Assembly (NCBI GenBank): GCA_032718475.1
Contig: JAUCBJ010002801.1
Span: 7,156-71,155, forward strand
DNA: 64,000 nucleotides
Source of the DNA: Nemertoderma westbladi
Taxonomy: Eukaryota > Animalia > Xenacoelomorpha
Direction: 5' to 3'
Positions within the stretch are counted from its first letter, which is position 1, and each line of letters opens with the position of its first letter. The notes beneath the pieces are model-generated. The model was not told where the DNA came from and made no database searches. It saw only the letters and a program-made list of their open reading frames with translations. Positions 4,993 through 54,600 of this stretch are shown here, piece after piece. The position numbers and the translations under genes are program-made.

Positions 4993-6235
4993 TGTTCGCG
5001 CTTTTAAGACCTTTGGCAGTTTAACCCGCCAAATCTATATGTCTTCTAGGTTATAAATCTACTCCAGCCTATGACAAGTATTGAACACCTATAATAATTC
5101 TAACATTAGCCAAAGCCAGTCTGTGCGCGACCATTCACCCGCTGGATATACCCGGGAGACTGGATTTGGATGCTTTAATTTGATTGCGGTGCAGGCCTAC
5201 CGTACTATTCGATTGATCGTTAATATATAATCTCTGACGAATATTATTCACTTTCGGGAAATATTAGCAGTTCCTTTAGGACGTGGCGCTCTATCTATTT
5301 AAACAGAGCTATGACTTACACTATACACAACAGTATGTCTTATAGATCACCAAAGTGCATTCTTTAGGAAATGCTTTGTTACTCGGTCAAGCACACACAG
5401 ACTATTGCATACAACTGCACACTGAATTGCCGACATTCACTGATTTTAATCATATATAAAGAGAATAACAACCGACATTTGTAGGGCCTATTAAGTAGCA
5501 TTGAACTCACTACAAACCACGATAATGTATGTCGCAAATTGTTATATGTAACCGGTCTCTCTAACCTTAGTGTATCAAGAAGATTGGGTTTTCGGATTGT
5601 TCAATATTCTTCCCAATAATAATATGTAAACGAACGATACAATTAACAACACAGTAAATAGCAGTAAATAATGCGGCGAAAAGCAGTTTACGTCAGGGTG
5701 AGCTTTTACAGATGCCGAGTTGACCAAGTTAACCGAGACCGAGACCGAGACCGAGTTAACAGTTTGATGATCTTATAATTAAAGACGCTCTAATGTCAGA
5801 AAACATTCCCCGGCCGGTGTTCTAGGCGTGGGGGAAACATCAGTACTGAATCCTGTAATTCTGCTGTACAGCTTTTACACAAAGAGGGAATCTCTGATTG
5901 GTCGAATGGCCAAAGGCTCCACGTGGACACAGCTGATAGATGTCGTCATTTTGAGCTGAGCAGAACAAAGAACCAAGGCAAGGCTCCGGGCAAGCTACAC
6001 GTGTAAAGCTCAGCCGTTAGCTGTCGTCATAGTAACGACACTGTTTCAAGAGGATCTAGGGCGTTGCGTCATAGAATTGCTACTTATGTCCTCTAAAGTA
6101 CACATACAGAAGAAATAGCTTTTATGTCCCCTAAAAACACCGGTACAGCAATGACACGGCCTTTTATGCCTGCTAAACCAACTACAGAGTACTTTACGGG
6201 GAAAATAACCGGGCAATTCTGCAAAAGCTTTTACA
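4993..6235 (-). repeat. BEL-1 3' LTR (1243 bp, TGTAAAA...GCGAACA)
   Basis: 4993-6140 matches 15541-16690 with only a handful of differences; TG/CA termini; PPT adjacent. Confidence 0.93.
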
Positions 6236-15529: not shown

Positions 15530-15540
15530 CAAACTGTTAT
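15530..15540 (-). promoter_or_regulatory. Non-tRNA primer-binding site ATAACAGTTTG, complementary to own LTR site 16307-16316
   Basis: Directly follows the 5' LTR end; lacks TGG; 10-nt complement CAAACTGTTA lies in the LTR on the minus strand. Confidence 0.75.
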
Positions 15541-16690
15541 TGTTCGCGCTTTTAAGACCTTTGGCAGTTTAACCCGCCAAATCTATATGTCTTCTAGGTT
15601 ATAAATCTACTCCAGCCTATGACAAGTATTGAACACCTATAATAATTCTAACATTAGCCAAAGCCAGTCTGTGCGCGACCATTCACCCGCTGGATATACC
15701 CGGGAGACTGGATTTGGATGCTTTAATTTGATTGCGGTGCAGGCCTACCGTACTATTCGATTGATCGTTAATATATAATCTCTGACGAATATTATTCACT
15801 TTCGGGAAATATTAGCAGTTCCTTTAGGACGTGGCGCTCTATCTATTTAAACAGAGCTATGACTTACACTATACACAACAGTATGTCTTATAGATCACCA
15901 AAGTGCATTCTTTAGGAAATGCTTTGTTACTCGGTCAAGCACACACAGACTATTGCACACAACTGCACACTGAATTGCCGACATTCACTGATTTTAATCA
16001 TATATAAAGAGAATAACAACCGACATTTGTAGGGCCTATTAAGTAGCATTGAACTCACTACAAACCACGATAATGTATGTCGCAAATTGTTATATGTAAC
16101 CGGTCTCTCTAACCTTAGTGTATCAAGAAGATTGGGTTTTCGGATCGTTATCAATATTCTTCCCAATAATAATATGTAAACGAACGATACAATTAACAAC
16201 ACAGTAAATAGCAGTAAATAATGCGGCGAAAAGCAGTTTACGTCAGGGTGAGCTTTTACAGATGCCGAGTTGACCAAGTTAACCGAGACCGAGACCGAGA
16301 CCGAGTTAACAGTTTGATGATCTAATAATTAAAGACGCTCTAATGTCAGAAAACATTCCCCGGCCGGTGTTCTAGGCGTGGGGGAAACGTCAGTACTGAA
16401 TCCTGTAATTCTGCTGTACAGCTTTTACACAAAGAGGGAATCTCTGATTGGTCGAATGGCCAAAGGCTCCACGTGGACACAGCTGATAGATGTCGTCATT
16501 TTGAGCTGAGCAGAACAAAGAACCAAGGCAAGGCTCCGGGCAAACTACACGTGTAAAGCTCAGCCGTTAGCTGTCGTCATAGTAACGACACTGTTTCAAG
16601 AGGATCTAGGGCGTTGCGTCATAGAATTGCTACTTATGTCCTCTAAAGTACACATACAGAAGAAATAGCTTTTATGTCCCCTAAAAACAC
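15541..16690 (-). repeat. BEL-1 5' LTR, lacking its first ~95 bp
   Basis: Identity to the 3' LTR stops after CTAAAAACAC at 16690, where a LINE 3' tail begins. Confidence 0.92.
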
Positions 16691-17379
16691 GGTTCATTTC
16701 ATTTCTTTGTTTAATTCGCATGTAGCGACAAAATAATAAACATGATAAAAAATGTGCACGCATTAATTACACATGTGTGAAATAATCCAGTTAAATATTG
16801 CACAATTGTAGAGAGATATATATATATTTAAAGATACACCCCCAGCCGGGGTAAGGTATATGATAGAGTGTTCAAGACAAATTCTGCAGAAAAATAGCAA
16901 TAAGTAAAATCGATTAAACGAAAGACCTTATAGTGGTTTTGAAAATAAGTGCTTTAAATAAAATTAATGTTTGAATATACTATATTAAAAAGAAAGATAC
17001 AGTAGCTGGTCCTTATTGATTTTATTGAATTTCCCATCAGCTGCTTATGTGGAGTACGCCTACTGCAAGAGTGACTAAGATACCAAAGTATATAATAAAC
17101 ATATACAATAAGCATACTGTAGTATAATTGTAACTATACCAGATCAACTAATATCATCATTTGATTTAATTCGCACGAGGCGACAATACCGGGTAAATGT
17201 AAATAAAAATGCACGCAAATGCACAATAAAAACAGCTGGCTAAAAATATAAAGTATGTGATTAGAATATGGATTGATATTATGTATATGTATTGATGATA
17301 TAGGGATTGATATTATTATATATATGATATGGATTAAGATTGATAGAATCCAAATAAAATCATAGTCAGACAAAGCGAA

Positions 17380-20300
17380 TTATCGGTCAAAGTATTGCTG
17401 GATCCGCCTTCTTTTGGTACTAAAGGGAACATTGCACCTAAAGCAGTTTTGGATGAAATTCACCCCACCCAATTCTGGGATTGTAAGTGATCCCGACTCG
17501 ACCCGTGTCCTAAGTTGTCTCCTGTCATACCTGGCCGTGCAGAGAGACCTTACGCTTGGAAGTGGATACAGGGAGCTGCAAGTTTGCTGACAAGAGCTCA
17601 GACCACCATGGGATTTAATTGTTGAGTGAGAAAGGTATCGACAGACAAGAAAGTTACATTCTGTGGCATTCGGACCATTGCAGGCACGTTGCAAGCAGCA
17701 CATGTTGTCATAAGCGATCACAGCGGAGATTGGAGTTGTGTTAGTAATCTTGTGCAAAACAGCATTTGGCACGTAACAGCTTACGTGCATCAGTCCACGC
17801 AGCACCTTCCTATAGGAAATGTCAAGTTCGCGCAGTTCCTTGTCAGTTAGCCGTCCCACCAGGAATCTCATCTTGTACAGTAGCGATGGGACCGCCGCTG
17901 TGTTCCATAGAGCGAAGAGTGTGCTCGGGTTTATTCTCCTTGCGGTCCAACCCTTCTGGTGGAAGGTCTCTGAGATTATTGTTAGATATCGTTTGAGTTC
18001 CTTCAATACTGCGGTCCTTTGTATATTTAGTGAGACGCCAAGGAATGATAATGACTTTGTTGGCTGTATAAGTACACCATTTATTTTAAGAAAACATGGA
18101 ATCCCCTGACCATTACGTCCAGATCCTAGGATATAAGTCCATTCTGTCTTTGAGCCTTCCACAGATAGACCCACACGTGCGAGTTCACGAGAGATTATCA
18201 CTATCATATCTTCTAGATCCTTAACTGACTCCCCGGTTAAAAATAGATCATCCGCGTAACAAAAGAGATGAGAGTATGATGCCAGTTTTCCTGGACCGAA
18301 TCCCGATTCCTTCAGTTTATCTGGTAAGAATCCGATATAGAAGGTGAATAGTACAGGTGAGATTAATGAACCTTGCTTGAGGCCACGAGTCAACTTGATT
18401 CCAATGGACTCAACCAACTCCCCAAATTTCAGATGAATCATTGTTTTCCTATAGTAGTCAAGCAGGACTGCACAGATATGGGGATTTAATACTTCCAGTA
18501 GCTTGTCATGGAGAACATGAAATTCGACACTGTCGAATGCTGACTTGATGTCCAGCTTGCACAGGATTGAATTCCTCCCATTTTCCCGTTGCATCTCCAA
18601 TTGTTCCATGATTACTGCTAGTGCAATATCTGTACCCAACCTTTTCCTATAGGCGAATTGCGAGCGGGGTTTAGGAAGTGCCATGAGGTATTCTGACAGA
18701 ATCACAGCCTCAAACACTTTGGAAAGAATGCTTATAGAGGCGATAGGCCTGAATGAGTTGGTTTTTAGTGGATCCCTTTGTTTTCCTTTGAAAATGTTTG
18801 TGACTACAGTCCTGCCAAAGCAAGAGGGGACCTTGCCCAGTCTGAGACAGGCATTCAATAGCTTGGCTATTGTGTCTGTAGCAATGTCCAGACTTACTAG
18901 GAGTATGTGCTCTATTACTAAAGATCCAAAATCTGGCGCTTTCCCTGGGGATATGGCTAGGATAGCCCTCCGTACTGTAGCTTTGGACACCGAAGGAATG
19001 TTACTGTGCTGGCACGCCACTGATATATTATGCTCCACTTCCCGTGTAAGATTTTCGTTTGCATCTGCCTGTGCTGCTTCTTGATATTGTTTAATTAGTT
19101 TCTCTTCGACATCCTTATTCGGGCTAATCATGGCCCTTGGGTTGATATTCCTCCAGAAATTTCGTGGATCCTTCTTTTCCAGCTGAGTGATTTTTTCCAC
19201 TTCTTGAGTTTCTTTATTGCGGAGGAGCCAGTTCTTGAGTCGCCTGACCCCACGTTTGGACTCCTTATATGATTCCTCTAACTTTGTACTTAAGACGCAG
19301 TCAGGTGCTGCTATTTTCCACAGTGAGTGTAGCTGTTTTGTTTGCCTTGACCGCTGGGCCAAATTGGCAGATTTTATTCGGTGCTGGTGTCCTTGGCGCC
19401 TGTTCTTTTTTATTGGTATATGTTCTAATGAAGCTGTGAGAAATATTTGTTCAAGCTGGACTGCCGCTGGTTCCAAGTTGGCCTCCTTCCAGGTTGCGCT
19501 AGCATGTTGTGTTGCCCAGAACTCTTCTAACTTGGTACTAACACTCTGGTTATAATCTGACAACTGTTGGGGCGTTGCTCAGTCCCAGTTAAACCGCGTT
19601 TGTTTAGTTTTCTTCCGTCCTTGGGTGGGCTTGATTCGAGTATTGACATTGCCTTTATCCATGATCGATATGTTAGCAATTACAGGTCTGTGGTCTGAGC
19701 AGTTTATAATTCCATCTTGGTCAGGATTATCATCAAGGACTTCGCCATTGGTAATGAGTGACCTTCCTGTCTTTGTTGTAAGAATATGGTCAATATAGGA
19801 TGAGGAAGTTGGCCCTGCATACGTGGATAATGGACCTGAGAAGCAACTGTATGTATCCGCTGCAAAAAGGTGTTGTTCATGCAGGAAGCGGGATAAGCGC
19901 TTCCCACGGGTGGATGCATTGTACCTATTGTATCGGGGTCCTTGTGTAGATCCGAGGTCTCCGTTTGTGTCTGACAGAATGAATGGAATAGCATCAGAGT
20001 TATTAAGCAGTAAGGATTCCAGGCGATTCAGGTGGTGTTCATATTCATCGGTTGGTTTGCTGGCATCCGGAGCATAACTGGAAATTAGCAGGAGTTTGCC
20101 CAGTGAGCTGACTGTGTTTGCTTTTATCCCGATTATGTCGTCCCCAGATTCAACTATTGATATGTTAGTGAATACATTCCTTCTATAAAAGAGGGCCACC
20201 CCACCAGCACATCGTTTCCTGTGTGGGTTACCCATTCGCCCCCCTACTACATGTAAATACTCAAAGTCCTTATTTAACATTGATAGATGTAGGCGTGATT

Positions 20301-20450
20301 GTAGTTCGTCCAGCCATGTCTCTTGTATTGCAAGTACATCCGTCTTTTCCAGTAAGTGGTTGATGAAATCCCAGCTGCTTGAGAAGCCATGGCAGTTGAA
20401 TGTTGCGATTCTCAGGTTTTTAGGTGCGTCCCCCCTGGTACCCTTTTCAT
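17380..20450 (-). pseudogene. LINE ORF2: APE endonuclease + reverse transcriptase with one in-frame TGA (19579-19581)
   Basis: IATFNCHG, IQETWL, GGVALF, SDTNGD, SYIDHI, SDHRPV; then FRPIAS, LDIKSAFDSV, GLKQGSLISP, YADD, FLGV. The two track ORFs are in the same frame. Confidence 0.92.
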
Positions 20451-20452
20451 TG

Positions 20453-23356
20453 TTAAACCCGCCGATTGGATTGGTGGGTGCCAGGGGACCATTCCCTGAC
20501 TCTGTCTCCTCTGTACCCCCACGATGAGTTCATTTGTAGGTTTGGTAGGTTCCCTCTGTCGCAGCATCTAATGTTGCTTGGCCAGAAGTCATGCTTAAGG
20601 GTCTTAAGTTTATCTTTAATATCAATAGTGGCCCGGATTCGTTTTGATTGGGGGTTAAGACCAGATAAGCTGGTTGTTGTGCGCTGTACCATTACTCCTC
20701 TGCGTTCTAGGTAGTTAGTGACATCAGCTTCATTCTCGCACTGGTGGAGACCCGTGATGTATATGACTGCTGGATTTCGTACCTGCTTAATGCTGGTTCT
20801 TCTAATCTCCCGTTTCCCATTGTGGTTGAGGTTGCAGGGTTTGGAGTTAACATAGTCCTTCCTCTGCCTGTGTAAGCTGGTGCTTATATCCTCTTGGGAT
20901 CTGAGTGGCTCCTTTCTCGTTTCCCTGGTTATGTTGTTGCAGTATGGATTAGCTTCTCGGGATAGTAGTTCATACTTGTTGCTTGTCTGGGTTTTGTTTA
21001 TGACATCTTTAGTTTTACTGTCAGTCCTACCATGTCGTTTTGCTTGTGGTCTTGGTCTATTGTTACTTTTAATTCTACTGCAGTCAGAACTGATGGTGTC
21101 GATCACAATTAATTCTTCCAAATCGCTCCGAGGCGGACTCTTGTTTTCTCCTTCATATATTTTCTTATGACTTCGTCTTTTACCAGTGATGTCGACCAAG
21201 CTATTGTTCTCCTTGGATTTATCTTGAATCAACTTAATCTTTTTGTTCATTATTTGCCCTTGAATAGAAATGTTTCTGTTATTATTTACTGACACTTGAG
21301 GTTGCATTATTTTGTCAGTGTGTGGCTTCATTACAGACATTATTTTTGCCTCTAGGATTAAGCGAGCACCCCGTTCTTCGTTCAGGTCTTCCTTAATCCG
21401 TTTATTTTCCTCCTCCATTGTGTCTACATTATTCTCCAGGGAGCAGATCCTGGCTTGTAAGGCTGCAACGGAAGATATAAGGTCTGATCTTAATTGTTCT
21501 AATGATATTGCTGATGGAGAGGTTTCTGTTTGCACTTTTTTCTTCAGACGTTTTCGAGCCGCATCTGTCAGGTTTCCAACCTGGATTGCAAGTAACAGTT
21601 CATATATGTCCAGCGAAACCTCGCTAGGTGAGCCACGCTGCCTGAGCTCAAGAGTGACCTGTTGTGTTGGGGCCATGAGCTGCACCACCTCTGCGAATAA
21701 CTTAGTTCTAATATTTAATCGGTGCTCTGATGAGAAAGTATTTAGTCTTTTTAATGTTGCTTTCTTAGAGCCCAAGAGGAGGGAAGACATGATATTGCTG
21801 GTTGAATCTGATGAATCCTGGCAAGATGGTTGTATATTCCCGGATAAGGTAGGTGTGCCAGGATCCCCACAAGACAGGTTGTTAGGGTTATCCGTGGATC
21901 TATGACTGGCATTACCTAGGATTGGCCAGGTGGTGTTTGTCTGATGGCCATGGGTTATAGGTGTCGGGTTTGATGCCACTGCCATAAAGGATGATGGCGG
22001 CACCAGCTGATGTGATGTGGGTGTACAAATGAGGTCACTGTCGATTTTGACATCTTTAATGACACCTTCCAACCATTTGCGTATACCCCCATTAAGTTTT
22101 TGGAATACATCTTTAGCACCTGTGGCTAAGTAAATGGCATATATGCAGATAAACGGGCCACAGTCGTGGCCATTGGATTGACTTGGGATTTCGCGGTGGC
22201 GCATTTCTACTTGCCATTCCGGACCTGCAACTCCTTTGACTCTATGAATCAAGTTGAGCAGGTTGCATAATATGGACTGATTTATGCCGCTATAATCTCT
22301 TTTGATTGGGCAAAAAGAGTATAGTTTCCTGGTGGTCACTTCTGCAATGTGTAAAGTATACTGGCTGTTGGTGCACTCAGGGAAGAATATTAATTCCTCA
22401 GTCTCTAGGTCACAGCTACTTGTGATGTATCTTACTGCGGCAGATACATCGAATTTGTCTTGGCTCAACTTGAGGCACAGTGAACTGTCAACAGAGCGTA
22501 TGTGTGGGAAATGTCTCTCCAGTAAGCCAAAGAAGCAGTCTATTATACCGGTAGTTACTAACGAGGTTCCCTGCAAACTTTCCATATCAAGACCACCTTG
22601 CACTGGGTTGAATAGTGGTTTTGGTGAGTGTCTACGTGGCTTTGTGATAGCCTTCACTACATCTAATTCATTGAAACCAGGTTCAATGTCGGCATGAAAG
22701 ATGCCTTCTAGTACTGAGTCACTATCTTCTTCCATGATGCTTAGTCCTGGTCTGGTGGGTCTGCCTTCTTCGTGAGATACATTTTCATTCACTGAACTGG
22801 TGGGCTTGGGTTCATTATATAGAGTATCGCTCAGTGGTTGGAACTCTGGGCTATTTGGATTTAATATGTGTGCGCTAGCCTTTATTGCTGTTGGCTGTGA
22901 CTTCTGGAAGAAATCGGTAATTTTCTTCACCTTTCTGCTGCTGCTTCGATTGCATATAGCTATGCATTCTACTCCCGGGGAAGACACTGCATGGTTGTGA
23001 GTGGTAGAATTTCCTGGTGGACCTGCAACTCCTTCTGGGATAGTGTTGGTAAAAAGAGGGCTTATTGGATCAGCAATTGACCCAGCATTGTCGAGACATG
23101 TGACCTTGGGTTCGCTTGCAATGCCTTGACCTATAGGGTTAGTTGATGGGGCTGTAGCGTACTGTTGGTCTGTGGTGTGGTTGTTTTTTGGGCGTGGGTA
23201 TGCATTTATGGTGATATATCTGGGCTTCCAGGTGAGGTCATCCTGGAGGTCATCCACTCTGTGTATCAGTGTCTCCTGCCCAGTTACTGCACCTTGAATA
23301 GAATTGGAACACATGTGGTCCCCATAGTTCTCCTCTGGTCCCTGCAAATTTGCCAC
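20453..23356 (-). CDS. LINE ORF1 (at least 967 aa): disordered N-terminus, Ulp1/SENP-like domain, coiled coil, C-terminal RRM-like domain
   Basis: IPSQSNGHDCGPFICIYA resembles the C48 protease Q-x-N-x-x-D-C-G motif. Coiled coil LQARICSLENNVDTMEEENKRIKE. RRM-like VIYITGL...FWPSNIRC. ORFs 23284-23529 and 23554-~24298 are probably frameshifted upstream parts. Confidence 0.8.
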   Translation of the reverse strand: MANLQGPEENYGDHMCSNSIQGAVTGQETLIHRVDDLQDDLTWKPRYITINAYPRPKNNHTTDQQYATAPSTNPIGQGIASEPKVTCLDNAGSIADPISPLFTNTIPEGVAGPPGNSTTHNHAVSSPGVECIAICNRSSSRKVKKITDFFQKSQPTAIKASAHILNPNSPEFQPLSDTLYNEPKPTSSVNENVSHEEGRPTRPGLSIMEEDSDSVLEGIFHADIEPGFNELDVVKAITKPRRHSPKPLFNPVQGGLDMESLQGTSLVTTGIIDCFFGLLERHFPHIRSVDSSLCLKLSQDKFDVSAAVRYITSSCDLETEELIFFPECTNSQYTLHIAEVTTRKLYSFCPIKRDYSGINQSILCNLLNLIHRVKGVAGPEWQVEMRHREIPSQSNGHDCGPFICIYAIYLATGAKDVFQKLNGGIRKWLEGVIKDVKIDSDLICTPTSHQLVPPSSFMAVASNPTPITHGHQTNTTWPILGNASHRSTDNPNNLSCGDPGTPTLSGNIQPSCQDSSDSTSNIMSSLLLGSKKATLKRLNTFSSEHRLNIRTKLFAEVVQLMAPTQQVTLELRQRGSPSEVSLDIYELLLAIQVGNLTDAARKRLKKKVQTETSPSAISLEQLRSDLISSVAALQARICSLENNVDTMEEENKRIKEDLNEERGARLILEAKIMSVMKPHTDKIMQPQVSVNNNRNISIQGQIMNKKIKLIQDKSKENNSLVDITGKRRSHKKIYEGENKSPPRSDLEELIVIDTISSDCSRIKSNNRPRPQAKRHGRTDSKTKDVINKTQTSNKYELLSREANPYCNNITRETRKEPLRSQEDISTSLHRQRKDYVNSKPCNLNHNGKREIRRTSIKQVRNPAVIYITGLHQCENEADVTNYLERRGVMVQRTTTSLSGLNPQSKRIRATIDIKDKLKTLKHDFWPSNIRCCDRGNLPNLQMNSSWGYRGDRVREWSPGTHQSNRRV

Positions 23357-24298
23357 CTCTGAGCATGTATTAGCATCCCCCTGAGAATCGAGTTGCAGGA
23401 GGCAGCATCAGGTTCATTTCTTCCCAGATAAACATCATTGTTGACCACCTCAGAGATGAATGCTTCCTTTAGTATGTCAACCTTACCTTGTCCGCTAAGT
23501 CGCTCTAATCCACTCTCTGATATATCCATGAATGGTGGGCAATCTGGGATCAGCTAACCAGGCTGCGTCAAAGAGAAACTATCAGTCACTGTTATAGACA
23601 CTGGAGAAGGTGGGTCGCTGGTTGCGGCTGCACCTTGATCTGCATTCACATCATTTTGATCTGCAATCGGCTCTATTGCTCTATTAGGTTCTATTGCGTC
23701 TGGTGAGTCATTAACCTGTCTGGGATTGTAGGGTATTGACTTAGGAAGGGCACCTTGGCTCCTGGTATGCGGTCTGGTTGCCTGGCATTTCTTCCCAAGC
23801 TGCTGCCAGTAACCAGGACCCCTCTTAGCTCGGCGAACAGCTGTACTTACCAGTGGTTGTTTGGCTGCTGATATAGTAGTGGTAACACAGTTACTATAAC
23901 TAGTAAATATAGAAATATTATTAGGTATACGCACCAAAAAGTTTGTATTTGTAACTGGGATAGGGCTAGTACCAGCGCCAAACTTGGAGCCATTGTTTGT
24001 GCTTTCCTGACGCACCCGAGCCGGGTCATTGGCTGTATGGTTACCCGGGCCTAACCAGCTTGGGTGTGCAGTATTGTAAACGCCGCCAGAATGGGGTGGT
24101 TTCATATGGATAGGTGTAGTAGTCGTCCTATTGCACCAGCTACCACCATCTGCTGGGTCCTCAACCATAATAGCGTTATTCACAGAGTTTGTGGTGGTCG
24201 AGATTGGTGGGGACATTGGAGTCGTCATCTTACCCGTAGATGGATCAGATCCTGAGACTATCATATTAAAGTTGTCGTTCCAGTTTTCAGGAAGACAC

Positions 24299-25347
24299 AT
24301 GTGTACTTTAGCGGACATAACAAGCCATTTTATGCCGCAATGCGCCAAAATACTCTTAATACAGTGTAGTTCAGATGACGACATCTATCAGCTGATATGT
24401 CGACGTGGAGCTTTTTGGCTTTCTTTGTTTAGGCTCACTCACTCGACCAATCAGAGCGATTTTCATTTTATTTGCACAGAAGCCTCCGGGAAATCGCGCA
24501 ATGCATTATGGTCTTTGTTTACCTTTTTTCCTGAGCCTAGAACATCGGCTGTGGAATTATTCTGTGTTTCAGACTTTAGCCAAACATTAGAACGGCTTTG
24601 ATCATAGAAACGTATAACTGTTATCTAATCAAATCTATCTACCACCTATCATATCATAACTATACGTACCTTTCACCGCATTATTTTACTGCTATTTACT
24701 GTCTGTTATTAATTGTTATCAGTTGATGGAATGTTGCTATATTTGGAGAATATCGATAAATAATCATAAAACCCCAATCTTCTTGATATACTAAAGGTTA
24801 CATATAGCAATTGCGACTTACATTATAGTGGTTTTGAGTGAATTGAATGCTATTTCATAGGCCCTACATGTGTCAGTTGCTGTTCTCCTTATATATGATT
24901 AAAATTAGTGAAGGTCGGCAGATCAGTGTGCAGCAGTGTGCGGTATTGTACATGAGTGTGATAGATAACAAAGCATTTCCTAAAGAATGCGTTTTATACA
25001 TAAAACATTAGCCATCCCGTTGTGTTTAGTGTAAGTCATAACTCTGTTCACATACTTAGAGCGCCACGTCCTAAAGGAACTGTTAATATTTCCCGAAAGT
25101 GAATAATATTTGTCAGAGATTATATATTAACGATCAATCGAATAGTACAGTAAGCCTACACTGCAATAAGGTCAGAGCATCCGAATCCAGTCTCCCTTAA
25201 CCGTGGGTGAATGATCGCGCATAGGCTGGCTTTGGCTAATGTAACTTTATGTGTATCAAATACTTGTTATAGGCTAAAGTCGATTTATAACCTAGAAGAC
25301 ACCTAAATTTGGCAGGTTAAACTGCTAAAGGTCTAAAAGCGCGAACA
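24299..25347 (+). repeat. BEL-2 5' LTR lacking its first ~130 bp
   Basis: Aligns to the BEL-3 LTR from ATGTGTACTTT onward; ends GCGCGAACA; CCAAT box (GACCAATCAG) at ~24445. Confidence 0.9.
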
Positions 25348-25360
25348 ATAACAGTTATAC
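25348..25360 (+). promoter_or_regulatory. Non-tRNA primer-binding site ATAACAGTTATAC, perfect complement of LTR 24612-24624
   Basis: 13/13 reverse complement of GTATAACTGTTAT; abuts the LTR end. Confidence 0.82.
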
Positions 25361-27164
25361 CTTTCTTTATTGCAACGTAGGCAATAAAGGTAAAAGTACC
25401 GGTCGACCGGTAACCAGTAGGCCTAACTACCTAAACACCCGAACCGGTACTTACAGCAGTACAGGTACATCAGTATTATTCGATTTTGATAATTATGTAC
25501 CGGTAGGTCTTGATATTTAATCAGGGACTGCAGCCCTGGTTTTTTATTGAGATTTTACTTATTTCTGTCAGTTTTATTTATCTGTAAGTTAATATTGAGC
25601 AGAAGGCGTGTAAGCCTGCTCAGATTGTACAGATAATTTGTAGGCTGGATTGTTGTCTGGCTGTTGTTAAGTCTGAAGAGATTGCAGTGTGTGTAGAGTG
25701 TATGTCCGATAAAGTACTAGTTAGGAATGTGGGGGCATCCAGTGCTGTAAGGTAAATCCCCCCCCCCCCCCCCCGAAAGAATAAGTCGTACTACTCGGTT
25801 AGAACGCATACTAACTAACCATTTCGGAGTCTGCATATACTGTAGTTTATTTAGGCTTGATAGTAGTCTGCCAGCGTTTGGTCTGTATTTTGTTTGTGTA
25901 GTCTGTATGGGTAGCGTAATATTTATTATTCAGAGTCTATGCGATTATTCGCAACATTCACAACCCCAAGTTTATTCCTACAGTAATTGTGCTTGTTATA
26001 CATACCGTTATAGTTAAATTAACCCCGGTACTACATCAGGACTGCTTGGCGTAGGTAAAGACTTGTGATTTTATACTCTGGTCACTCCGGCAGATACCGT
26101 GGTTCTTTTAGCTGTACAAGTATTTTTAACTGCTGGTTATTTGTTGTATAAGTACTTGTACCTAATTTAGGGTTTAGTGTACAGTGCTTTCTGAAGGTAA
26201 TTCGTGTGTAGGCAGTATATTTGTGTTGTAAGGTGGTTAATAGGCACATTAGCTATAGTAGGCTGCGGTAATTAACTTCTAGGTAGGAACACTCCGGGTA
26301 CATAACGTAGTACTTATAGCGCTACGGCTATAAGTCGTCAGATGGTGGTATTTTCTTATCTAGACAACGCAATATATAAAATTAACCCTAAAAATTCGTA
26401 CATGTAATTTTTGTGTTTATTTAGAGATTGTAATCTCACCCCGTATTGTACGTAATTCGTAGTAATAAGTAACTTAGGCAAGTAGAATTATTTGTTTTAG
26501 TGTCCAACAAGTAGCACTTCACTGAGAGCGTACAGCTTCTGTGTAGTGACTCCTTCCTAGAAATAATAACATTTATTTCAAATATTGTAACAAAACCCAT
26601 TAAACGGGTATATATATTATAAATCAACTCAAACCGATTTATAAAATAGTAGGCCTGTCATACAACAATTAGGTCTTAATATCAGTTGGACTACTGCTTA
26701 AATAACGGTAAAGTAAAGTAACTAAGTAACCCTAAAAATTCAGAAATTCAATTATTCTAAAATAATTGATGTACCGGTATTTACGATAGGCTTATTATAT
26801 TTATTTCTATAAATTTAAGCTGAAATTATATACCGGTATTCTGTAATTAATTCTAGTCTATAATTATACTTATATATACTATAAGTGTAAGCTGTATACT
26901 GGTATTCACGGTAGGCTTATTATATATCTATATATTTGCGCTGAAATTATATACCGGTATTCTGTGACGAACCCTAATATCCGATCCGTAATAATACTTA
27001 TATATGCTATAAGTGTATACCGGTATTCTAATATATTGTATATATATCACTTTACATAGAGTAACGATATCGGTAATTAATTACTAGGCTAACAGTTGAT
27101 ACTGAATTACTAGACTTGCTTTAACTGTAATTATAGCAGTAGGCATTCAACTGTACAAACAAAC

Positions 27165-30100
27165 ATGTCTGACACAAAGCAAAACCTGTCAGACAGTCTC
27201 CTAGATACAACCATCTGTGACCCAGATAGGAGTGTGGAACGTTTGAGACCAAAGTTCAACTCACCTCCTACTGTAAGAAAGATCACCCCTCCAGTAGTAG
27301 TATCAGACCCTAGGCTAGTCAAACACCGTAGGTCTATCATAGGCACTCGGGCTCAAGTCAAGCGGGACCAAGAAGCAGCTGTTAAACAGCAGCAACACTC
27401 GAGCCGAGAACTTATTTCTCAGCGGCCCGATAGCTCCAGTAGTTCGGATACTGTAGAGCTGACACCCGAGCGCGGAACAAAGATGGCAGAGATTAACTTA
27501 TCGGAAGCTGCCTGGGAAGACTTACACAGGATGGGAGTGACAAAAGACACTAGTGATCCAGCTGTGTGGAAGAGGTCGGCAGCAGGATATGTACAGAGAT
27601 TCTTTAGCTCTTTGGAGCGATTAGAGGAACAACTGTTTCAACAACCCCAAGGACCTCAAGAGCAGGGAGAGCTGCTTTATCAAGTTTGAGAAAGAATTCT
27701 AAGAATCAGACTAATCCTATCGGCCTTTGAGGAAGCTTCGAAAAGAAGACAAGACACGTCGTTGCAAGTTGCCGTAAAGACTTGGTTCCAGCGGGTGAGT
27801 CTCAAGGTTCAAAGAACGGCCCAGTGGAAATTTCAGCTGTCTGAGCGCTCAACCCACGGAGAATCAACAGACGCTACCTTTTCTCAAGTGGAAAGCGAAG
27901 CGACAGCAGAGAAACCGCAGAAGAAGGACGCTATTGACATCTATCTGTCAGACTATCAACGATTTCTAGGTGACGAAGAGTTGAGGAGAAGGCTGGCTGG
28001 ACTTCGTCCTAATAGTGAAGGAGCCAAGCTTGTGTTGGACGCAATAGATGCGGAAATGTTAGCTGCGAATAAAGCTAAATTTGATGAAAGCATCCGCATC
28101 GCTAGGGTCCAAGAAGAACAGGTAAAGAAAAAACGTATAGAAGACAGAAAGACAGCAGCAGCGGCAGCGGCAGAAGTTGAAAGAAAAGCGGCAGCGGCAG
28201 TGGCAGAAGCAGAGGCTGAAAGGAAAGCGGCAATGGAAGCGGCAGAAGTGGAAAGGAAAGCGGCAATGGCAGCGGTAGAAGCGGAAAGAAAGCGAGCAGC
28301 GGCAGAAGCGGAAAGAAAAGAGGCAGAGGCAGTGGCAGAAGCAGAACGGAGAGCGTCTGAAGAGACCACCCAACTAGAGTTGGAAAATCTTCAAGAGAAG
28401 CAAGACTACATAAATAAACAGTTAACAGCTAGTCAGATGCAGATGATAAGTCGATCTACTCCCAAAAGACAGGGATTTACATCATCTGATGAAGGCGATA
28501 CCACCGATCCTGAAGGCAGAGGAAATAGATCTCGTCTAAGCAGGCGTAGAAGAACGCCCCACCGTCAGAAATTGCCTAATTTGCCCCCAGCTGTAAGAAG
28601 GCAACTAGCTAGCACAGACTTAGGTAGTACAGAACCCACAGACCAAATTATTAGAGTAGAAAGACTCCCTACTATAGTGGATGAACCTGAAATAATTAGG
28701 CCTGTTCTCGAAGCCACTCCCTCTGTAATAGAGACCACTGTACTTCCAGAATCGAACTATAAATTCCCTTTGCACAGTACTAAACTACCTGTATCCCGTG
28801 GGACAGTTCCTCAGTCAATTCCGGTCCTGGACGCTGAGCGAGACATTAACAATTTGTCGCCCGTCGTCCCTCGTCTACCCGCTACTATGTTGGCGGCTTC
28901 CGCTTCGGCGGTTGAGTGGGTGGATGAGCGACGGCGGGGGATGGATATTCTCCTCGGGAAGATGGAGGAGAATCAGGCTCGCTCCTCCCAACAGGTCCGA
29001 GAGTTGGAGGGGACTGTTCAACAGTTAAAGGGAACAGTAAGAGAAAGTAAGTTAGAATTACAGGAAGTGCAGCAGAGTATCGCGTTAGAACGCCATAAGT
29101 TAGTAAATTTACAAAAGGGTATACCAACACCCCCTGTAACAATGTGTCAACCTGTTAGGTCTGAAGTATTTCATGCGCAAGGTGTGGAGCCTACATGCAT
29201 CTATACTGCTAGTGAAGTAGAAACTCCTATAGTAAACCCTATTAAAGGTAATTATAAACCTGTTGACAATGATATTCCATATAGACCTGATAATAATCCG
29301 AGAAATTTATGTACCGATAACTCGATATTAAATAATACGATGGCCCAAGAAAGTTTTACGCGTCAAATGGCTAGAACCGAAGCCCGTCAAGCGGTAAAGG
29401 TGGGAGAGATCGTCAAGTTCAATGGAGATGAGATGAAATGGTTACCTTTTAATGAATATTATAAAGATAACATACAGAACTCTGTGCTATCTAACGGAGA
29501 GAAACTTAGATTCCTCATCGAGTGCTTGGAAGGATCTCCCAAGTTAATGGCGTTAAAGTTTATTGGACATCCAGATGGATTAAGACAAGTTTGGAATACA
29601 CTAAACATCAGGTATGGTAATATGAATAACATAGCTAGGTATTTGTATGCAAAATTGGTAGCGCCCAGAAAGTTCATTAGCAGCGGGATTATAGAGTTTT
29701 CCGATGAGATTCAGGAGATCTGTAGACAATTAGATTGGCTAGGTAAGTCTCATGAATATCAGAGTTCTATGGTTATTGGAGCCGTAGCATCTACTTTACC
29801 AAAGGGTGGAGTAGGTACACGCTGGGACAAGAAAGTGTTATATATGATGGAACAACAACGAAGAGACCCTACCATGGCTGATCTCATGTCATTCTTAGAT
29901 GGAGAGGTAAAATTACAGCTCCTAAAGCAGTCCAGAGAGAAGACACCGGAAAATAAGGTAAGTGAGAAACCCGTTTCTAGGAGAAAGGTAACACCAGTGT
30001 GTTATACAGACGACGGCGAAAGCCAGGCTTCTCAAGAGGAGGACAGCGGGAAAGACACTGAAAGATCTTACTATGTCAACAAAGCGCCTAAAGACGTAAG

Positions 30101-33100
30101 TAAATTTAAGTCTCGAACCAATGACAGGAGAGAACAGGTAACAAAAACTCCTCCTACGTCTCCTAAGAGAGTTCACGGAAGAAAGCCCGAGGAAAGAACG
30201 AGAGTGCACAACGTTGCCACAGGTAAAGTAAGTAACATCAAACCAAAATGTGCGCTGTGCGACGGGCCCCACCGTTTAAGTGTGTGTGATGAATTTTTAA
30301 AGAAATCTCTAAAAGATAGACGTGAAGTCATGTGGGATAAGCGGTTGTGTTATAATTGCCTCAGACAAGGACACCAACGGCGAACCTGTTACTCTGACGC
30401 AAGGTGTGCTAAGTGCGGCGCGTAACATCATATCTTGTTGCACACTGAATTCGAAAGAAACAACCCGAGTCAGGTAAGTGAGTCCGAACTACATGTCCAA
30501 TTCAGTCATGTGAACGACACTGACCAAAGTTCTGAGATGGAAGGATTCTATACGGATGAATTCTCCGACGAAAACGAATCCTGTTACCTAATAAATACCG
30601 CAGTATATCGAGCACTTACATATGAGAAAGAGACAGATAGTGAGCTCCCCCTAACCACTCCTAACCGACAACCATCTTGGAAAGCACCAACTTCCAATGT
30701 AGGAATCCGCGAATTTCCCGTAGTGCAGTTGAGAGTCCACGGGTCACAAAAGAGCTATATAGTGAACGCCCTCCTTGACTCCGGCAGCACAGGAACATTC
30801 ATCGACAAAGAACTAGCCGAAGACATCTTTGCTGGACAACCCAAGTTCCGAACTAAGTTGAACATGTCAGGAATTATGCAGGTTTGGAAATCTACAGTAA
30901 CTACAGACTATTATGTAGGCGCATTGTCCACCCCCCAGGATGAACTAGGAAAACACAGTATAAGGTCAGTAAAAATGGTGGCGATAAAGAACTTCGCTAC
31001 CAGCCAAGCGGAACTTTATAACTGGGATGAGGACGATTTCACCCAACAGCATAAGATACCTAGATTCAATACAGACTACCCTGGAGTACAAATACTCATC
31101 GGCCAAAATGCGCATGAGGCGCTTGAGACATTGGAGAAACGGCCTGCTCAACCGCAACCACTACAAACCTATGCGGGAAGAACTAGAGTAGGTTGGTACT
31201 TTACTGGACCTTTCCGTAAAACTCTCATGGAAAGGCTACCCAAAGAACGAGTCTACCAGGTGAGTGAATGGGAAGATGAGACCAGTGAGGGAGACGACCC
31301 ACATGAGGGAACACCATACTCCTCAGATAATGACGATATCCACCAACTATTCGACGAGGAGAATACCATCGACCTCCTTACGGAAAATGAAACTTGGCAA
31401 AACCAAGTGAACCTATGTCACCTCATTCATCCAGCGGAACAAGTCGATTACAACGACGAACTGAATGAAGTGATAGATCGCTACAATGCGAAGACTCGTG
31501 ATGAACATGCCGTACGATTCTTTACTCAAGAGGCTGTAGAGCCCAATTCCTACGATAAGGCCCTATCGGTAGAAGAAGAAAGAGCCAAGCAGATACAGGA
31601 AACAACTACACGTTTTCTTAAAGATCAAGGTAGATATGAGATTGGTCTGCCTTTCCGACGGCGAGAACCCAATTTTATAAACAACCGACCCTTGGCGGAG
31701 AAGAGAATTGCGCAACTACATCGACGCCTTACGGCAAATGCTTCAGCTAAGGAGATGTACAAGACCCAGCTGAAGAAATTCATTGACAAGGGATATGCGG
31801 AGCGAGTACCGGAAGGAACACCCATAACTGAGAGAACATACTATTTAACACATCATTACGTTCCCAAACCCGGTAAACCCAATGAAGTCCGGGTAGTATT
31901 TGACGGCTCCGCCCTCTACATGGGCCAATCCCTTAACTCCGAGTTGTTGCCAGGACCCAACTTACTCCAATCCTTGTTGGGAATACTCTTAAGATTACGA
32001 CAATATTCAATCGCTTTCGCTTCCGATATAGAAGGCATGTTCTTACAAGTTAAGGCGCTGGATAGGGATCGAGACAGCCTACGATTTCTGTGGTGGCCTG
32101 AAGGAGACCTCAACCAGAACCCGGTGGAGTACTGGATGACCATCCAGGCTTTTGGGATCATCTCGAGCCCTTCAAACGCCTGCTCAGTAGTGCGTACCAC
32201 TGCTGATGACAACCGGGACGCCTTCTCCAAAGAGGTTATCGACAACATCAAACGGGATATATACATGGACGACAATTTAAAGTCCCTCCCATCGGTGGAA
32301 GAAGCCATTGATGTCGCCAAAGGAACGGTAGAGTGCTTGAAAAGAGGTGGATTTCGATTAACTAAATTCACCAGCAACTCCTGTGAGTTTCTGGAATCGA
32401 TCCCGGTAGAAGACCGAGGAGTTAAAGATCTAGACCTAATCAAGGACGATCTTCCAGAAACCAAGACGCTTGGTTTGAAATGGGACACAGAGAGAGATAT
32501 ACTGTTTTTCCAGCTAAAACAGCGAGATAATCCAGTTCGGACTAAATGGATTTGTCTAAGTATCCTGAGCACTTATTTCGATCCATTGGGATTTATTAGC
32601 CCAGTTATATTGATTGCTCGGAGTTTAGTACAACAAATGTGGCTTGAAAACCACTCATGGGACGATCCACTTAAGGGAGAACTATTAAAGAAGTGGATGA
32701 AATGGGAAGATTCTCTACCATCCATCGAGAACTTTATAATTTCCCGTTCCTATTTTGGTCATGTTCTCCCCACGTATTCCTATCAACTCCATGTGTTTGG
32801 AGACGCCAGTGATATGGGAATAGGAATAGTAGCCTACCTGAGAGTTGAAACTCCGGATGGAATCAAGGTCGCCTTGGTTACCTCTAAGGCCTTGATAAAC
32901 AACAAGTTGAAAGTTCCTCGAGCGGAGTTAAAAGCGGCTCTATACGCTACAGCCATCGGCCGGAATGTAACAGAACAGATCGACTATCCACTGGAGAAAA
33001 TTATCTATTGGACCGATGCTTTACTCGTGTTGGAGTATATAACCAATGAAGTCTGTCAGTTCAGCGTCTTCATTACCAACAGAGTAGCCATTATACTTAG

Positions 33101-35147
33101 TCGCACGAAGATAGATCAATGGAGACATTGCCCTGGGACGATTAATCCAGCCGACATCGCCTCCAGGGGAGCAACTCCGCAAGAACTGATAGATACTCCA
33201 GACTGGTTAGGTGGACCCGACTTCCTAAGCAAGGAAGAGGATGAATGGCCTCCTCATCTTACTACGGCGGAGATTAGACAGGCCAAGGGAGCGGAGAAAG
33301 TCAAACCTAAAACTCGGGCGAGTAAATCGAAGTTATTTAAACCCGTGATAGATCTGTCTGTCCTACACACTTCCGGAGACGACGCTTTGGATCCGAAACC
33401 CACAGCCACAAATAAGTCTGTTGTGGAAATCAGAGAGAGAGATTGGAAATCTGGAATACCAGACGTCTCGCAAGGACTCTCACCTCTCCTGCAGAGAGCG
33501 ATACATCACTATAGTTCCTGGAATCGGCTCTGTAAGGCCGTTACATATTTAAAGCGATGTTTTCATCATCACTACTCCAGGACGAAGACCACTAGTGATA
33601 CCGCTCCACTGACATCTGCGCAGGTCCATGTTGTTAAAGATCTTCCCAAATACAAGATATCAGACAGGTTTCTGAAGGAGAAGATCAGATACCAGGAGCA
33701 TGAAGAAACCAATAAGCAGATACTGAGACTCCTGCAATGCTATGAGGATTCCGATAAGTATTTCCTGTTGTTGAGAAATCCACAGATGCGCTTAAGGGAT
33801 CGTTTCTCTAGCACAATGATAGATGGGTTAATACGCGTTGGAGGAAGACTAACTAATGCTCCATTATCCTTTGACACTAAGTTTCCCATACTCATTAGAA
33901 ATCTTGAAATACAAATCAAGATGATTGTAGATGTTCACAGTAAGCTTTATCATGCTGGTAGAGAACGAGTTCTTAGCGAAATTCGAACTCGCTATTATTT
34001 TCATAAACCCCATAGAGCTCTGAACCAAGTTCTTAGGAACTGCATACCCTGTAGGAAAGCGTTCAGTAGGCCTTTAACACAGCGAGAGGCAGAATTACCT
34101 AGGGAACGAGTAAGCTTCTATGAACCACCCTTTACTAATACCGGTGTGGATTTATTTGGCCCTATTGAAGTATATCGTGCTAGGACTATAGTCAAGAGAT
34201 GGTGTGTCATATTTGTCTGTATGACTTGTAGAGCTATCCATCTCGATATGGTGAACGATCTATCTACCAACAGCTTCATACTGAGCTTACGCCGACAGAT
34301 CGTTCGCTTTGGAACTAGTAACACGATGAGATCTGATAAGGGAACGAACTTCATTGGTGCCAACAATGAAATCAAGGATTATGTCAAAGATTGGAACCAA
34401 AGACAGGTGGACGATCAGCTAAGGGTAACAGTGTCTAGCTGGACCTTCAACGCCGTCGACGCCCTGTGGTGGGGAGGAAGTTGGGAGAGATTAATCAGAA
34501 GCGTGAAGACCACATTTCACTTTATAGTGCCTTGCCGCGCGTATCTCACCGACGAACTTTTGCGGATGTTAATGGAGGAAATCGCCACCTATCTCAACGA
34601 GAGACCGCTTATGCCAGTCTCATCGAGTCCCGATTCCCTGGAAGCGCTAACACCCGCGCACTTCCTACTGAAGAAACCTGTAGCCATGCTCCCACGATCG
34701 GATATCACGGACGGAGACGAATACTGCCGGCAAACTTGGCAACTTATGCAGTTGTTATCCCGCCATTTCGCTGACCATTTTGAAAAACATTATCTGCCTA
34801 TGCTACAACTTCGAACTAAGTGGTTTGCGCAGCAAGAAAACGTCAGCGCAGGAGACATGGTCCTTATTGTGGATTCAGATCTTCCACATAAGCGGTGGCA
34901 GACAGGTCGTATCATCGAGACTCATATCTCGGATGATGGTTTGGTGCGATCGGTAGAACTCGTCATCATGCGACGTAACTTTAAGAAACCGGGAATTGTC
35001 TTCGAGATGCAGCAGCTCAATCGCCCAATTGGTCGTTTATGTTTACTGGAAAGAGACAGAGAACTCTCCGGAAACTATGGAAGGCAAGATACTCTTCCCA
35101 CGACCACTTCCCTAATACAACCAACATCCAGGGACTCCCCAACGTGA
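27165..35147 (+). pseudogene. BEL gag-pol polyprotein, single frame of 2661 codons with two premature stops (27687-27689, 30423-30425)
   Basis: Three track ORFs share one frame. Zn knuckles; DSG protease; RT VRVVFDGS, DIEGMFLQV, YMDD; RNase H FGDAS, PRAEL, WTDA, NPADIASRG; integrase HAGRE/CIPC, GVDLFGP, SDKGTNF, WWGGSWERL. Domain order is BEL/Pao. Confidence 0.95.
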
Positions 35148-41738: not shown

Positions 41739-41818
41739 TATTGTACCTGTTGTAATTTGAAATAAACATAAATAATAGTGACGGGGGTCTACAGTAGAAG
41801 GCCCGATAAGGAACCAAC

Positions 41819-43005
41819 TGTAAAAGCTTTTGCGGAATTAGCCGGTTATTTTTACCGCAAAGTACTCTGTAGGTGTTTTAACGGACATCAAAAGCCGTTT
41901 CCTTACTGTACTGGTGTTTTAGTGGACATAAAAAGCCATTTCTTCTGTATGTGTACTTTGGCGGACATAACTAGCAATTCTATGTCGCAATACGCTAAAT
42001 CCTCTTGAAACAGTGTAGTTACTATGACGACAGCTAACAGCTGATCTGTACAAGTGTAGCTTTTTCCTTGTTCTCTGTTGTTTCTTTGTTCGGTCAACCA
42101 ATCAGAGCGATTCTCCTGCTTTTTGTACAGAAACCTCCGGGAAATCGCGCAATGCATTATGGGTCAATGTTTACCTTTTTTCCTGAGCCCAGAAGACCGG
42201 CTTTGGAATCTCTGTGTTTTCAGGCTTTAGCCCAACATTAGTAGGCTTAATCACAGAAACGTATATCTGTTATCTTAACAAATCAATCATAACATAACTC
42301 ACCTAATCATATTGTCAACTACAAACACCGCATTTTTACTGCTATTTACTGTCGGTCATTAATTATATCGGTTGATGGAATATTATTATATTTGGATAAT
42401 ATCGATCAATAATCAGAAACCCCAATCTTCTTGGTATACTGAAGGTTAGAGAGACCGGTTACATATAACAATTGCGACTTACATTAAAGTGGTTTTGGAG
42501 TGAATCTAATGCTATTTCATAGGCACTACATGAGACGGTTGTTGTTCTCTTTATATGTGACTAAAATTAGTGAAGGTCGGCAGATCAGTGTGCAGCATTG
42601 TGCAGTAGTGTGTATGATTGTGACTGATAACAAAGCATCTCCTAAAGAATGCGCTATATACGTAAATCCATAGCCATCCCGTTGTGTCTAGTTTAAGTCA
42701 TAACTCTGTTTACATATTTAGAGCGCCACGTCCTAAAGGAACTGTTAATATTTCCCGAAAGTGAATAATATTTGTCAGAGATTATATATTACGATCAGTC
42801 GAATAATACAGTAGGCCTACATCGCAATCAGGTTAGGCTTCCGAATCCAGTCTCCCGGGTATATCCAGCGGGTGAATGGTCGCGCATAGACTGGCTTCGG
42901 CTAATGTAGTGTATCAAATACTCATCATAGGCTAAAGTCGATTTATTATCTAGAAGACATCCAAATTTGGCAGGTTAAACTGCTAAAGGTCTGAAAGCGC
43001 GAACA
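41819..43005 (+). repeat. BEL-3 5' LTR
   Basis: TGTAAAA...GCGAACA; near-identical to 53381-54567. Confidence 0.96.
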
Positions 43006-43017
43006 ATAACAGATATA
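43006..43017 (+). promoter_or_regulatory. Non-tRNA primer-binding site ATAACAGATATA, perfect complement of LTR 42262-42273
   Basis: 12/12 reverse complement of TATATCTGTTAT. Confidence 0.82.
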
Positions 43018-43389
43018 ACTTCAGAAATATAGTTGTCTATTGTTCTGGTAAGAACAATAACAGATATAAAATTCTGATTGCAGTGTAGGCAATAAATGCA
43101 GTTTAATATTGTTCTGGTAAGAACAATAACGGTTATTGCTTCTGTATTGCAGTAGGCAATAAAGCTGAAGTACCAGTCAACCAGTACCCAGTAGGCCTGA
43201 CTACCTAACTACCCGAACCGGTACTTACAGCAGTACAGGTACAGGAGTATTATTCGATTTTGATAATTATATACCGGTAGGCCTTAATATTTAATCAGGG
43301 AGGGCCCGCCCTGGTTTTTATTGAGATTTTACTTATTTATTTACTTGTAGGTTAATATTGAGCAGAAGACGTGTAAGCCTGCCCAGATT

Positions 43390-53303: not shown

Positions 53304-53380
53304 CTGTTTAGAGTATTTTTATATTTTAGAAACTGTGATTTTTATATTTTATAGACTTAAATCCCATTTTCTGGGAGCGG

Positions 53381-54567
53381 TGTAAAAGCTTTTGCAGAAT
53401 TAGCCGGTTATTTTTAACGCAAAGTACTCTGTAGGTGTTTTAACGGACATCAAAAGCCGTTTCCTTACTGTACTGGTGTTTTAGTGGACATAAAAAGCCA
53501 TTTCTTCTGTATGTGTACTTTGGCGGACATAACTAGCAATTCTATGTCGCAATACGCTAAATCCTCTTGAAACAGTGTAGTTACTATGACGACAGCTAAC
53601 AGCTGATCTGTACACGTGTAGCTTTTTCCTTGTTCTCTGTTGTTTCTTTGTTCGGTCAACCAATCAGAGCGATTCTCCTGCTTTTTGTACAGAAACCTCC
53701 GGGAAATCGCGCAATGCATTATGGGTCAATGTTTACCTTTTTTCCTGAGCCCAGAAGACCGGCTTTGGAATCTCTGTGTTTTCAGGCTTTAGCCCAACAT
53801 TAGTAGGCTTAATCACAGAAACATATATCTGTTATCTTAACAAATCAATCATAACATAACTCACCTAATCATATTGTCAACTACAAACACCGCATTTTTA
53901 CTGCTATTTACTGTCGGTCATTAATTATATCGGTTGATGGAATATTATTATATTTGGATAATATCGATCAATAATCAGAAACCCCAATCTTCTTGATATA
54001 CTGAAGGTTAGAGAGACCGGTTACATATAACAATTGCGACTTACATTAAAGTGGTTTTGGAGTGAATCTAATGCTATTTCATAGGCACTACATGAGTCGG
54101 TTGTTGTTCTCTTTATATGTGACTAAAATTAGTGAAGGTCGGCAGATCGGTGTGCAGCATTGTGCAGTAGTGTGTATGATTGTGACTGATAACAAAGCAT
54201 CTCCTAAAGAATGCGCTATATACGTAAATCCATAGCCATCCCGTTGTGTCTAGTTTAAGTCATAACTCTGTTTACATATTTAGAGCGCCACGTCCTAAAG
54301 GAACTGTTAATATTTCCCGAAAGTGAATAATATTTGTCAGAGATTATATATTACGATCAGTCGAATAATACAGTAGGCCTACATCGCAATCAGGTTAGGC
54401 TTCCGAATCCAGTCTCCCGGGTATATCCAGCGGGTGAATGGTCGCGCATAGACTGGCTTCGGCTAATGTAGTGTATCAAATACTCGTCATAGGCTAAAGT
54501 CGATTTATTATCTAGAAGACATCCAAATTTGGCAGGTTAAACTGCTAAAGGTCTGAAAGCGCGAACA
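53381..54567 (+). repeat. BEL-3 3' LTR
   Basis: Preceded by GGGAGCGG; followed by the TSD CCAAC. Confidence 0.96.
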
Positions 54568-54600
54568 CCAACCTTTTATTTCATAAAACAGTCAACTACC

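Follow-up and report, generated by a model that had tools for sequence, protein, structure and literature searches.

A BEL/Pao retrotransposon family present in high copy number carries, at its PBS, a sequence that pairs with its own LTR, and this family likely dispenses with a tRNA and primes minus-strand DNA synthesis from about 11 nt of the element's RNA. Three related LTR elements of this family, BEL-1, BEL-2 and BEL-3, lie in the 64,000-nt stretch of DNA that was analyzed (the window). An earlier, sequence-only reading had proposed self-priming in a BEL lineage. The covariation of the paired sites, a variable spacer past PBS position 11 and the occurrence of the same signature in distant BEL relatives all speak for that part of the proposal; the borrowed origin that it also considered is unsupported, as is the "Tf1-type" label in its strict sense of a primer formed by the very 5' end of the transcript.

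The retrotransposon family

The LTRs of BEL-1, BEL-2 and BEL-3 are ~80 to 83% alike, and their main features are collected in Table 1. As the three copies share ancestry, they amount to the evidence of one family, not to three independent tests. BEL-3 has both ends intact, with the TG...CA LTR pair, short target duplication and PPT that characterize BEL/Pao elements. For BEL-2, the 3' LTR is absent from the window. The 3' ends of the LTRs were set by the second LTR copy in BEL-1 and BEL-3, and by homology in BEL-2.

Table 1. Positions of the LTRs, paired sites and coding regions of the three elements in the window.
Feature	Position	Strand	Remark
BEL-1 3' LTR	4993..6235	-	1243 bp
BEL-1 deletion-bearing region	9397-9598	-	
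BEL-1 PBS-position sequence	15530..15540	-	base 15540 unpaired, next 10 (15539-15530) paired
BEL-1 5' LTR remnant	15541..16690	-	~95 bp gone from 5' end
BEL-1 LTR site, putative self-primer	16307..16316	-	10 nt
BEL-2 5' LTR remnant	24299..25347	+	3' end is ACA; 5' part truncated beside LINE
BEL-2 LTR site, putative self-primer	24612..24624	+	13 nt
Predicted U5 multi-helix closing just before the BEL-2 LTR end	25217..25344	+	same predicted fold in 3/3 copies
BEL-2 PBS-position sequence	25348..25360	+	complementary to 24612-24624, 13 bp
BEL-2 gag-pol	27690..35147	+	DUF1759, protease, RT, RNase H, integrase, DUF5641
BEL-3 target duplication	41814-41818 and 54568-54572		5 bp
BEL-3 5' LTR	41819..43005	+	1187 bp, TG...CA
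BEL-3 LTR site, putative self-primer	42262..42273	+	12 nt
BEL-3 PBS-position sequence	43006..43017	+	12 bp pairing
BEL-3 deletion-bearing region	49662-50149	+	
Purine-rich tract preceding the BEL-3 3' LTR, putative PPT	53373..53380	+	
BEL-3 3' LTR	53381..54567	+	1187 bp; 1179/1187 positions same as 5' LTR

The gag-pol of BEL-2 is broken by an in-frame stop (30423-30425). Its Pfam matches include PF05380 (Pao domain, E 5e-35), PF18701 (E 4e-20), PF03564 and PF17921, and it encodes an integrase zinc finger besides DUF1759, PF05380 and DUF5641. In the alignment the motifs run in the order protease, RT, RNase H, integrase, and the RNase H domain is present with its first catalytic motif. All 99 homologues of the protein carry BEL-type Pfam families, the closest being just 37% identical. 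The domains and the PR-RT-RH-IN order place the family in BEL/Pao. The window element lies outside the Tf1/sushi group, which has the Ty3/Gypsy chromovirus-type RT, since its domains and homologues are those of BEL/Pao.

BEL-1 and BEL-3 are devoid of the RT and integrase parts (equivalents of BEL-2 31340-33110 and 33589-34984). Missing much of pol, they must be mobilized in trans. Their LTR pairs are 99.3 to 99.4% identical, which marks them as a non-autonomous sub-lineage that was mobile until recently. Public DNA runs of organism A, from three studies, show the family in great abundance, with 9279 contig records of run X1 mapped onto 1081 bases; the best-matching run may be the source sample.

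Other features of the neighborhood were recorded. A LINE with endonuclease and RT ORFs (17380-24384, minus strand) sits between BEL-1 and BEL-2 (window 16691-24298); the two elements diverge in orientation around it, and each is without the first ~95 to 130 bp of its 5' LTR. Past pol, BEL-2 has an extra reading frame (37251-40190, plus strand) of 293 + 685 aa, in one frame and split by a stop, the first part of which is retained in BEL-1 and BEL-3. A Pfam search with it gave zero matches, and its Atlas matches, all below 0.8, are to 3'-5' exonuclease clusters, a weak lead. Between this frame and the BEL-3 insertion lies an intronless caspase-domain frame (40753-41730, plus strand; PF00656, E 1.9e-31), in which a stop codon comes early, at 41569-41571. 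It is either a host retrocopy or element cargo, and a search for homologues returned none at E<=1e-20. Directly past BEL-3 is a 20-bp tandem array (54605-54772), and two open frames without Pfam match were also recorded (57079-57756 and 61146-62225).

Pairing between the PBS and the LTR

None of the three copies has a TGG at its LTR end or close to it, which confirms the absence of a TGG-initiated PBS noted in the sequence-only reading. The three pairs of 13, 12 and 10 bp that it described were all recovered, and the location of the LTR site, given as ~720 to 770 nt upstream, can be corrected to 723, 732 and 766 nt from the LTR end. The three LTR sites are homologous to one another. About 11 nt of the LTR is complementary to the LTR-adjacent PBS, as in Tf1. 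In BEL-1 the mismatch coincides with the position of the would-be primer's last base.

We compared the observed lengths with those obtained after dinucleotide shuffling of each LTR, with offsets of 0 to 2 allowed. They were reached in 0/5000 shuffles for BEL-2, 8/5000 for BEL-3 and 29/5000 for BEL-1, the complementarity of the latter taken alone having a p of ~0.006 in addition to its terminal mismatch. In a leader scan of 1500 offsets per copy, the LTR-adjacent offset was the longest or joint-longest, ties being found in BEL-3 with its own duplicated PBS and in BEL-1 with two other 10-mers. When each PBS was paired with each LTR, the cognate combinations gave 13, 12 and 10 bp and the six non-cognate ones 6 to 9. 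The claim that the two sites co-vary is upheld by three compensatory changes, at PBS positions 8, 10 and 11. The motif had also been described as absent after the 3' LTRs; this holds for two copies, not for BEL-2, whose 3' LTR is not in the window, and it is expected of any PBS.

Two further PBS-like copies are present in the BEL-3 leader (43038..43137, plus strand), starting at 43057 and 43126. A 9-bp inverted repeat, a mirror of the LTR/PBS junction, comes before each of them, and they are possibly scars of faulty strand transfer; the first unit is missing from many genomic copies. A longer primer, formed through one more short helix on the far side of the first mismatch, was considered and dropped; copies with a BEL-1-type PBS differ in the spacer letters.

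PBS variants in other genomic copies

Other genomic copies were taken from two DNA studies and compared with BEL-3 as the reference. Among the 12 listed out of 19, eight diverge from BEL-3 after PBS position 11 (43016) and one after position 12, and three have BEL-1-type letters after position 7. The inserts in the diverging copies are short and differ from one another (CTAGTCTGT, GAT, TTC, GATCG, T, TTAGTCTGT, TTGG and TCG), and the leader then resumes. One loose end with an additional PBS type was found in run X5. This pattern indicates that, in the PBS, the first 11 bases occur in a few discrete types, while the next 3 to 5 vary freely. Free variation past position 11 is as expected with an 11-nt primer. 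Run X5, which is RNA by guess, gave zero cover at 42180-42327, an uninformative result as this region diverges between subfamilies.

Promoter words and predicted folding

We looked for promoter words around the LTR site. No TATA-like word occurs within 330 nt upstream of it in any of the three copies. TATATA is found downstream, at 278 to 393 nt and at 509 to 537 nt; a promoter there would place the LTR site in U3. In BEL-1 and BEL-2 the nearer TATATA overlaps an ATTAAA that has GT-rich sequence behind it, and a poly(A) region is an equally good reading of it. Where relatives have a clear TATA box, the primer site begins ~30 nt downstream of it (L002) or 120 to 135 nt downstream (L031 and L045), so that the capped end does not have to be the primer.

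Folding of the whole region with the RNA start set 0 to 10 nt before the site gave a mean helix probability of 0.73 to 0.98 for BEL-2 and 0.43 to 0.96 for BEL-3. With a start 25 to 60 nt earlier and a 120-nt leader, the helix between site and PBS had a probability of just 0.06 to 0.19 (BEL-2/BEL-3). For BEL-1 it was at most 0.03 in all eight settings. The U5 multi-helix showed double-sided changes at 0/41 pairs and thus stays a prediction only. A tRNA search of the window found none. Rfam yielded zero matches at E<=1 for 24200-27700, too weak a test for a 13-mer.

The same signature in BEL relatives

Relatives were collected by a protein scan, and 80 of 495 confirmed metagenome loci and 15 genome-bin loci were retrieved (95 loci). 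A long-range direct repeat was present in 42 of the 95, and the 53 loci without one were unscored. At 14 loci, representing 12 distinct LTR families, both copies end at one point and then diverge, which sets the LTR end independently. None of the 14 has TGG within the first five bases. By contrast, TGG-initiated sites were found at L087/L088, whose self-complements are of 6 to 7 nt only.

A self-complement of 10 to 15 nt was found at 13 of the 14 independent-boundary loci. At 11 of the 14 the complement, of 11 to 15 nt, runs across a GT-AG junction in the locus's own LTR; it is contiguous at two (11 and 10 nt), and L034 has just 9 to 10 nt. The complement begins 0 to 4 nt from the LTR end, and the PBS sequences are unrelated across a dozen families. 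At 11 loci the observed length was equaled at 0/70 control leader positions, at two loci at 1/70 and at one locus at 3/70. In a cross table of 14 rows the cognate LTR came out on top in 12; that of L050 drew level with the LTR of its relative L015, and that of L034 was outscored by the LTR of its relative L089. One donor word joined the search after inspection of L025, and the L025 row is thus post hoc. The loop is 86 to 278 nt in the relatives versus 723 to 766 nt in the window family.

L031 and L033 are 99% identical internally and have the PBS in common. Compared with L033, the L031 3' LTR (6694-7103) has lost exactly one 536-nt GT-AG stretch, and its 11-nt complement is contiguous; the L031 5' end retains the 3' part of the intron. 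This exact loss from DNA indicates that the intron is truly spliced, although the splicing may have been in the 3' LTR copy. A primer-splitting intron was also sought in the window family and rejected; there is no strong donor upstream of the site, and the best junction score is at most 4.

Blind scans were run on loci without an independent LTR end. They gave plausible matches of 10 to 15 nt in 10/11 loci with a visible LTR start and in 6/12 circular contigs, with two misses and four in which no PPT was found. As 13 to 40 candidate ends are tried per locus, these matches count as weak support. The conserved LTR motif had zero matches in viral, metagenome and prokaryote collections, and 0/8 candidates from a protein scan of viral contigs were confirmed. 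The 15 BEL/Pao-encoding contigs found inside prokaryote genome bins (L081-L095) are most likely contamination from host animals.

Phylogenetic distribution

A tree was built from the RT-RNase H region (54 rows, 489 columns), leaving out L061, L089 and L090, whose matches are short. Loci without a PBS reading were mostly omitted, and the rows comprise unnamed loci and host-named proteins. The window element falls inside a 36-row clade with support of 100/97. This clade contains all 22 rows labeled self-complementary (11 with independent boundaries, the others read by eye or in blind scans); seahorse and bryozoan proteins fall in it too. Outside it are insect and nematode proteins and the TGG-type L087/L088. 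Forcing the window element into the outside group was rejected (p-AU 0.025), the group having been named after inspection of the tree and the branch being long (1.31).

The self-complementary trait spans a broad BEL/Pao clade, where an intron usually interrupts the primer site. As the sampling alignment came from the self-complementary clade, the sample is not a census of BEL/Pao. Being widespread in the clade, the trait is most simply explained by inheritance within it. The idea of self-priming acquired independently or borrowed by this one family is therefore too narrow, and borrowing from Tf1 is unsupported.

Proposed mechanism and alternative explanations

In the mechanism that we propose, the LTR site in the 5' part of the genomic RNA would anneal to the PBS, either within one RNA, with 0.75 kb looped out, or from one packaged RNA to the other. 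A cut 3' of the LTR site would then be made by the element's RNase H, and RT would extend the 3'-OH freed in this way through U5-R. Plus-strand synthesis would then copy the primer back into the PBS, which would keep the two sites in step, and untemplated bases added at that DNA end would give rise to the variable 3 to 5 nt past position 11. We infer the latter step for the window family by analogy with Tf1. In most relatives the primer site would exist only once the LTR intron has been spliced out, whereas in the window family the primer would be ready-made, through intron loss or as an older state.

Could the pairing have another meaning? It might be a structural long-range RNA contact, for packaging, for dimerization or between the 3'-LTR site and the 5' end, with priming, at this position or close to it, by some host RNA, for example a fragment from inside a tRNA. 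Copia lineages are known to include half-tRNA primers that lack TGG (available text of PMC6317226 and PMC5445492), and transcription may start downstream of the LTR site. Against it stands a complement of 10 to 15 nt that, in a dozen families whose PBS sequences are unrelated, begins 0 to 4 nt from the LTR end. The host primer would need to change over together with the LTR in every case, and the free variation sets in immediately past position 11. We consider this explanation unlikely.

It is quite improbable that the primer, albeit derived from the LTR, is a separate short RNA (a solo-LTR transcript or a small-RNA product) instead of RNase H-cut, packaged genomic RNA. The abundance of the family in run X1, the length of the loop and the failure of the cis fold for BEL-1 fit such a source. 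Nevertheless, each PBS fits its own LTR better than those of its sisters, even though BEL-1 and BEL-3 move in trans, and a common primer pool would blur this cognate matching. That the complementarity has no role, having arisen by chance or as the remains of an old inverted duplication, is very improbable and largely refuted: despite there being just three related copies in the window and the modest p value of BEL-1, the shuffle counts, the three compensatory changes and the signature at 13 of 14 independent-boundary loci weigh against it.

Returning to self-priming, the balance tips slightly toward a wider scenario. A broad, old clade of animal BEL/Pao elements may have abandoned tRNA priming, with the LTR's own RNA as the primer. 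In most families this primer would be assembled by host splicing, so that splicing would gate reverse transcription. The window family would be a deep-branching member with an unsplit primer, working via the 0.75-kb loop or a partner RNA and possibly cut from inside the transcript instead of forming its capped 5' end.

Such a scenario bears on several questions. Both ICTV and reviews regard BEL/Pao elements as tRNA-primed and consider their replication poorly understood. Among Gypsy elements Tf1 has been shown to self-prime, and one Copia clade is predicted to do so; a BEL clade, if true, would extend self-priming to all three LTR superfamilies. It would also bear on which came first, self-priming or tRNA priming, and would explain why PBS-dependent annotation misses such elements. 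The splice-split form of the relatives predicts spliced LTR reads and LTR-derived RNA on strong-stop cDNA. The window family, very abundant, young and with its site unsplit, offers a natural contrast to them.

Comparison with known systems

According to ICTV, the PBS of Belpaoviridae is 18 nt long and is the complement of the tRNA-Arg or tRNA-Gly 3' end, and their replication is poorly understood (PMC8742986). The window family resembles Belpaoviridae/Semotivirus in its LTRs (up to 1.2 kb in that group), its gag-pol with PR-RT-RH-IN order, its polypurine tract and its animal type (PMC8742986). It differs in the PBS: a tRNA-type site is missing from all three window copies and from the 14 independent-boundary relatives, whereas L087/L088 have a TGG-initiated one. 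The family therefore does not have the tRNA-Arg or tRNA-Gly PBS given by ICTV and is BEL/Pao by its proteins. In the literature searched, whose scope left out most subscription journals, Repbase Reports and supplements, we found no paper on self-priming in BEL/Pao. By term counts, the words PBS and tRNA are absent from the main text, to the extent available, of the BEL-related PMC3118150, PMC554778, PMC8556966, PMC12440569 and PMC6238403, and PMC8220671 mentions the PBS only generically.

Self-priming has been described for Tf1/sushi elements, and Tcn1 and the Copia TAR clade are predicted to use it (available text of PMC6317226, PMC3601003, PMC5445492 and PMC6934838). The fungal GalEa Copia elements, with their Conserved Hairpin Site, likewise have no tRNA PBS in the published portion available and show inverted complementarity at the PBS position; both of their arms are in the leader, 12 to 41 bp apart, whereas one arm is deep in the LTR in the window family (PMC5445492). 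In the plant Ty1/Copia TAR clade (Houba, Osr-1), self-priming was likewise predicted from sequence alone, in a lineage apart from Tf1 (PMC6317226, available sections). Superfamily and host kingdom differ between that clade and the window family.

The closest parallel is to Tf1, in which annealing of the site to the PBS, the RNase H cut, extension by RT and copy-back have been demonstrated (available text of PMC7175516, PMC5341516 and PMC4600332). RNase H cuts the Tf1 primer, which is 11 nt long and whose copy comes to lie at the end of the cDNA, to which RT appends untemplated bases (PMC7175516 and PMC11042837, in the parts available), and about half of the cDNAs retain the PBS as a single-stranded 3' end (PMC11042837, same proviso). 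Like Tf1/Tf2 of Schizosaccharomyces pombe, Tj1 of S. japonicus, the Tf1/sushi group and Tcn1 (Ty3/Gypsy), as far as the available descriptions go, the window family has no tRNA PBS and has ~11 nt beside the 5' LTR complementary to its own LTR. The first five bases of its PBS, ATAAC, are also those given for Tf1 (PMC11042837, available text), likely a coincidence since the BEL relatives start differently. Unlike in the Tf1 systems, the proteins are those of BEL/Pao, the site is 723 to 766 nt from the LTR end, and most BEL relatives have an intron-split site. Priming in the window family is most likely Tf1-like, yet in an element outside the Tf1/sushi group. These features most likely represent a known mechanism in a superfamily without prior description of it, of which the relatives appear to show a stranger, splice-built form.
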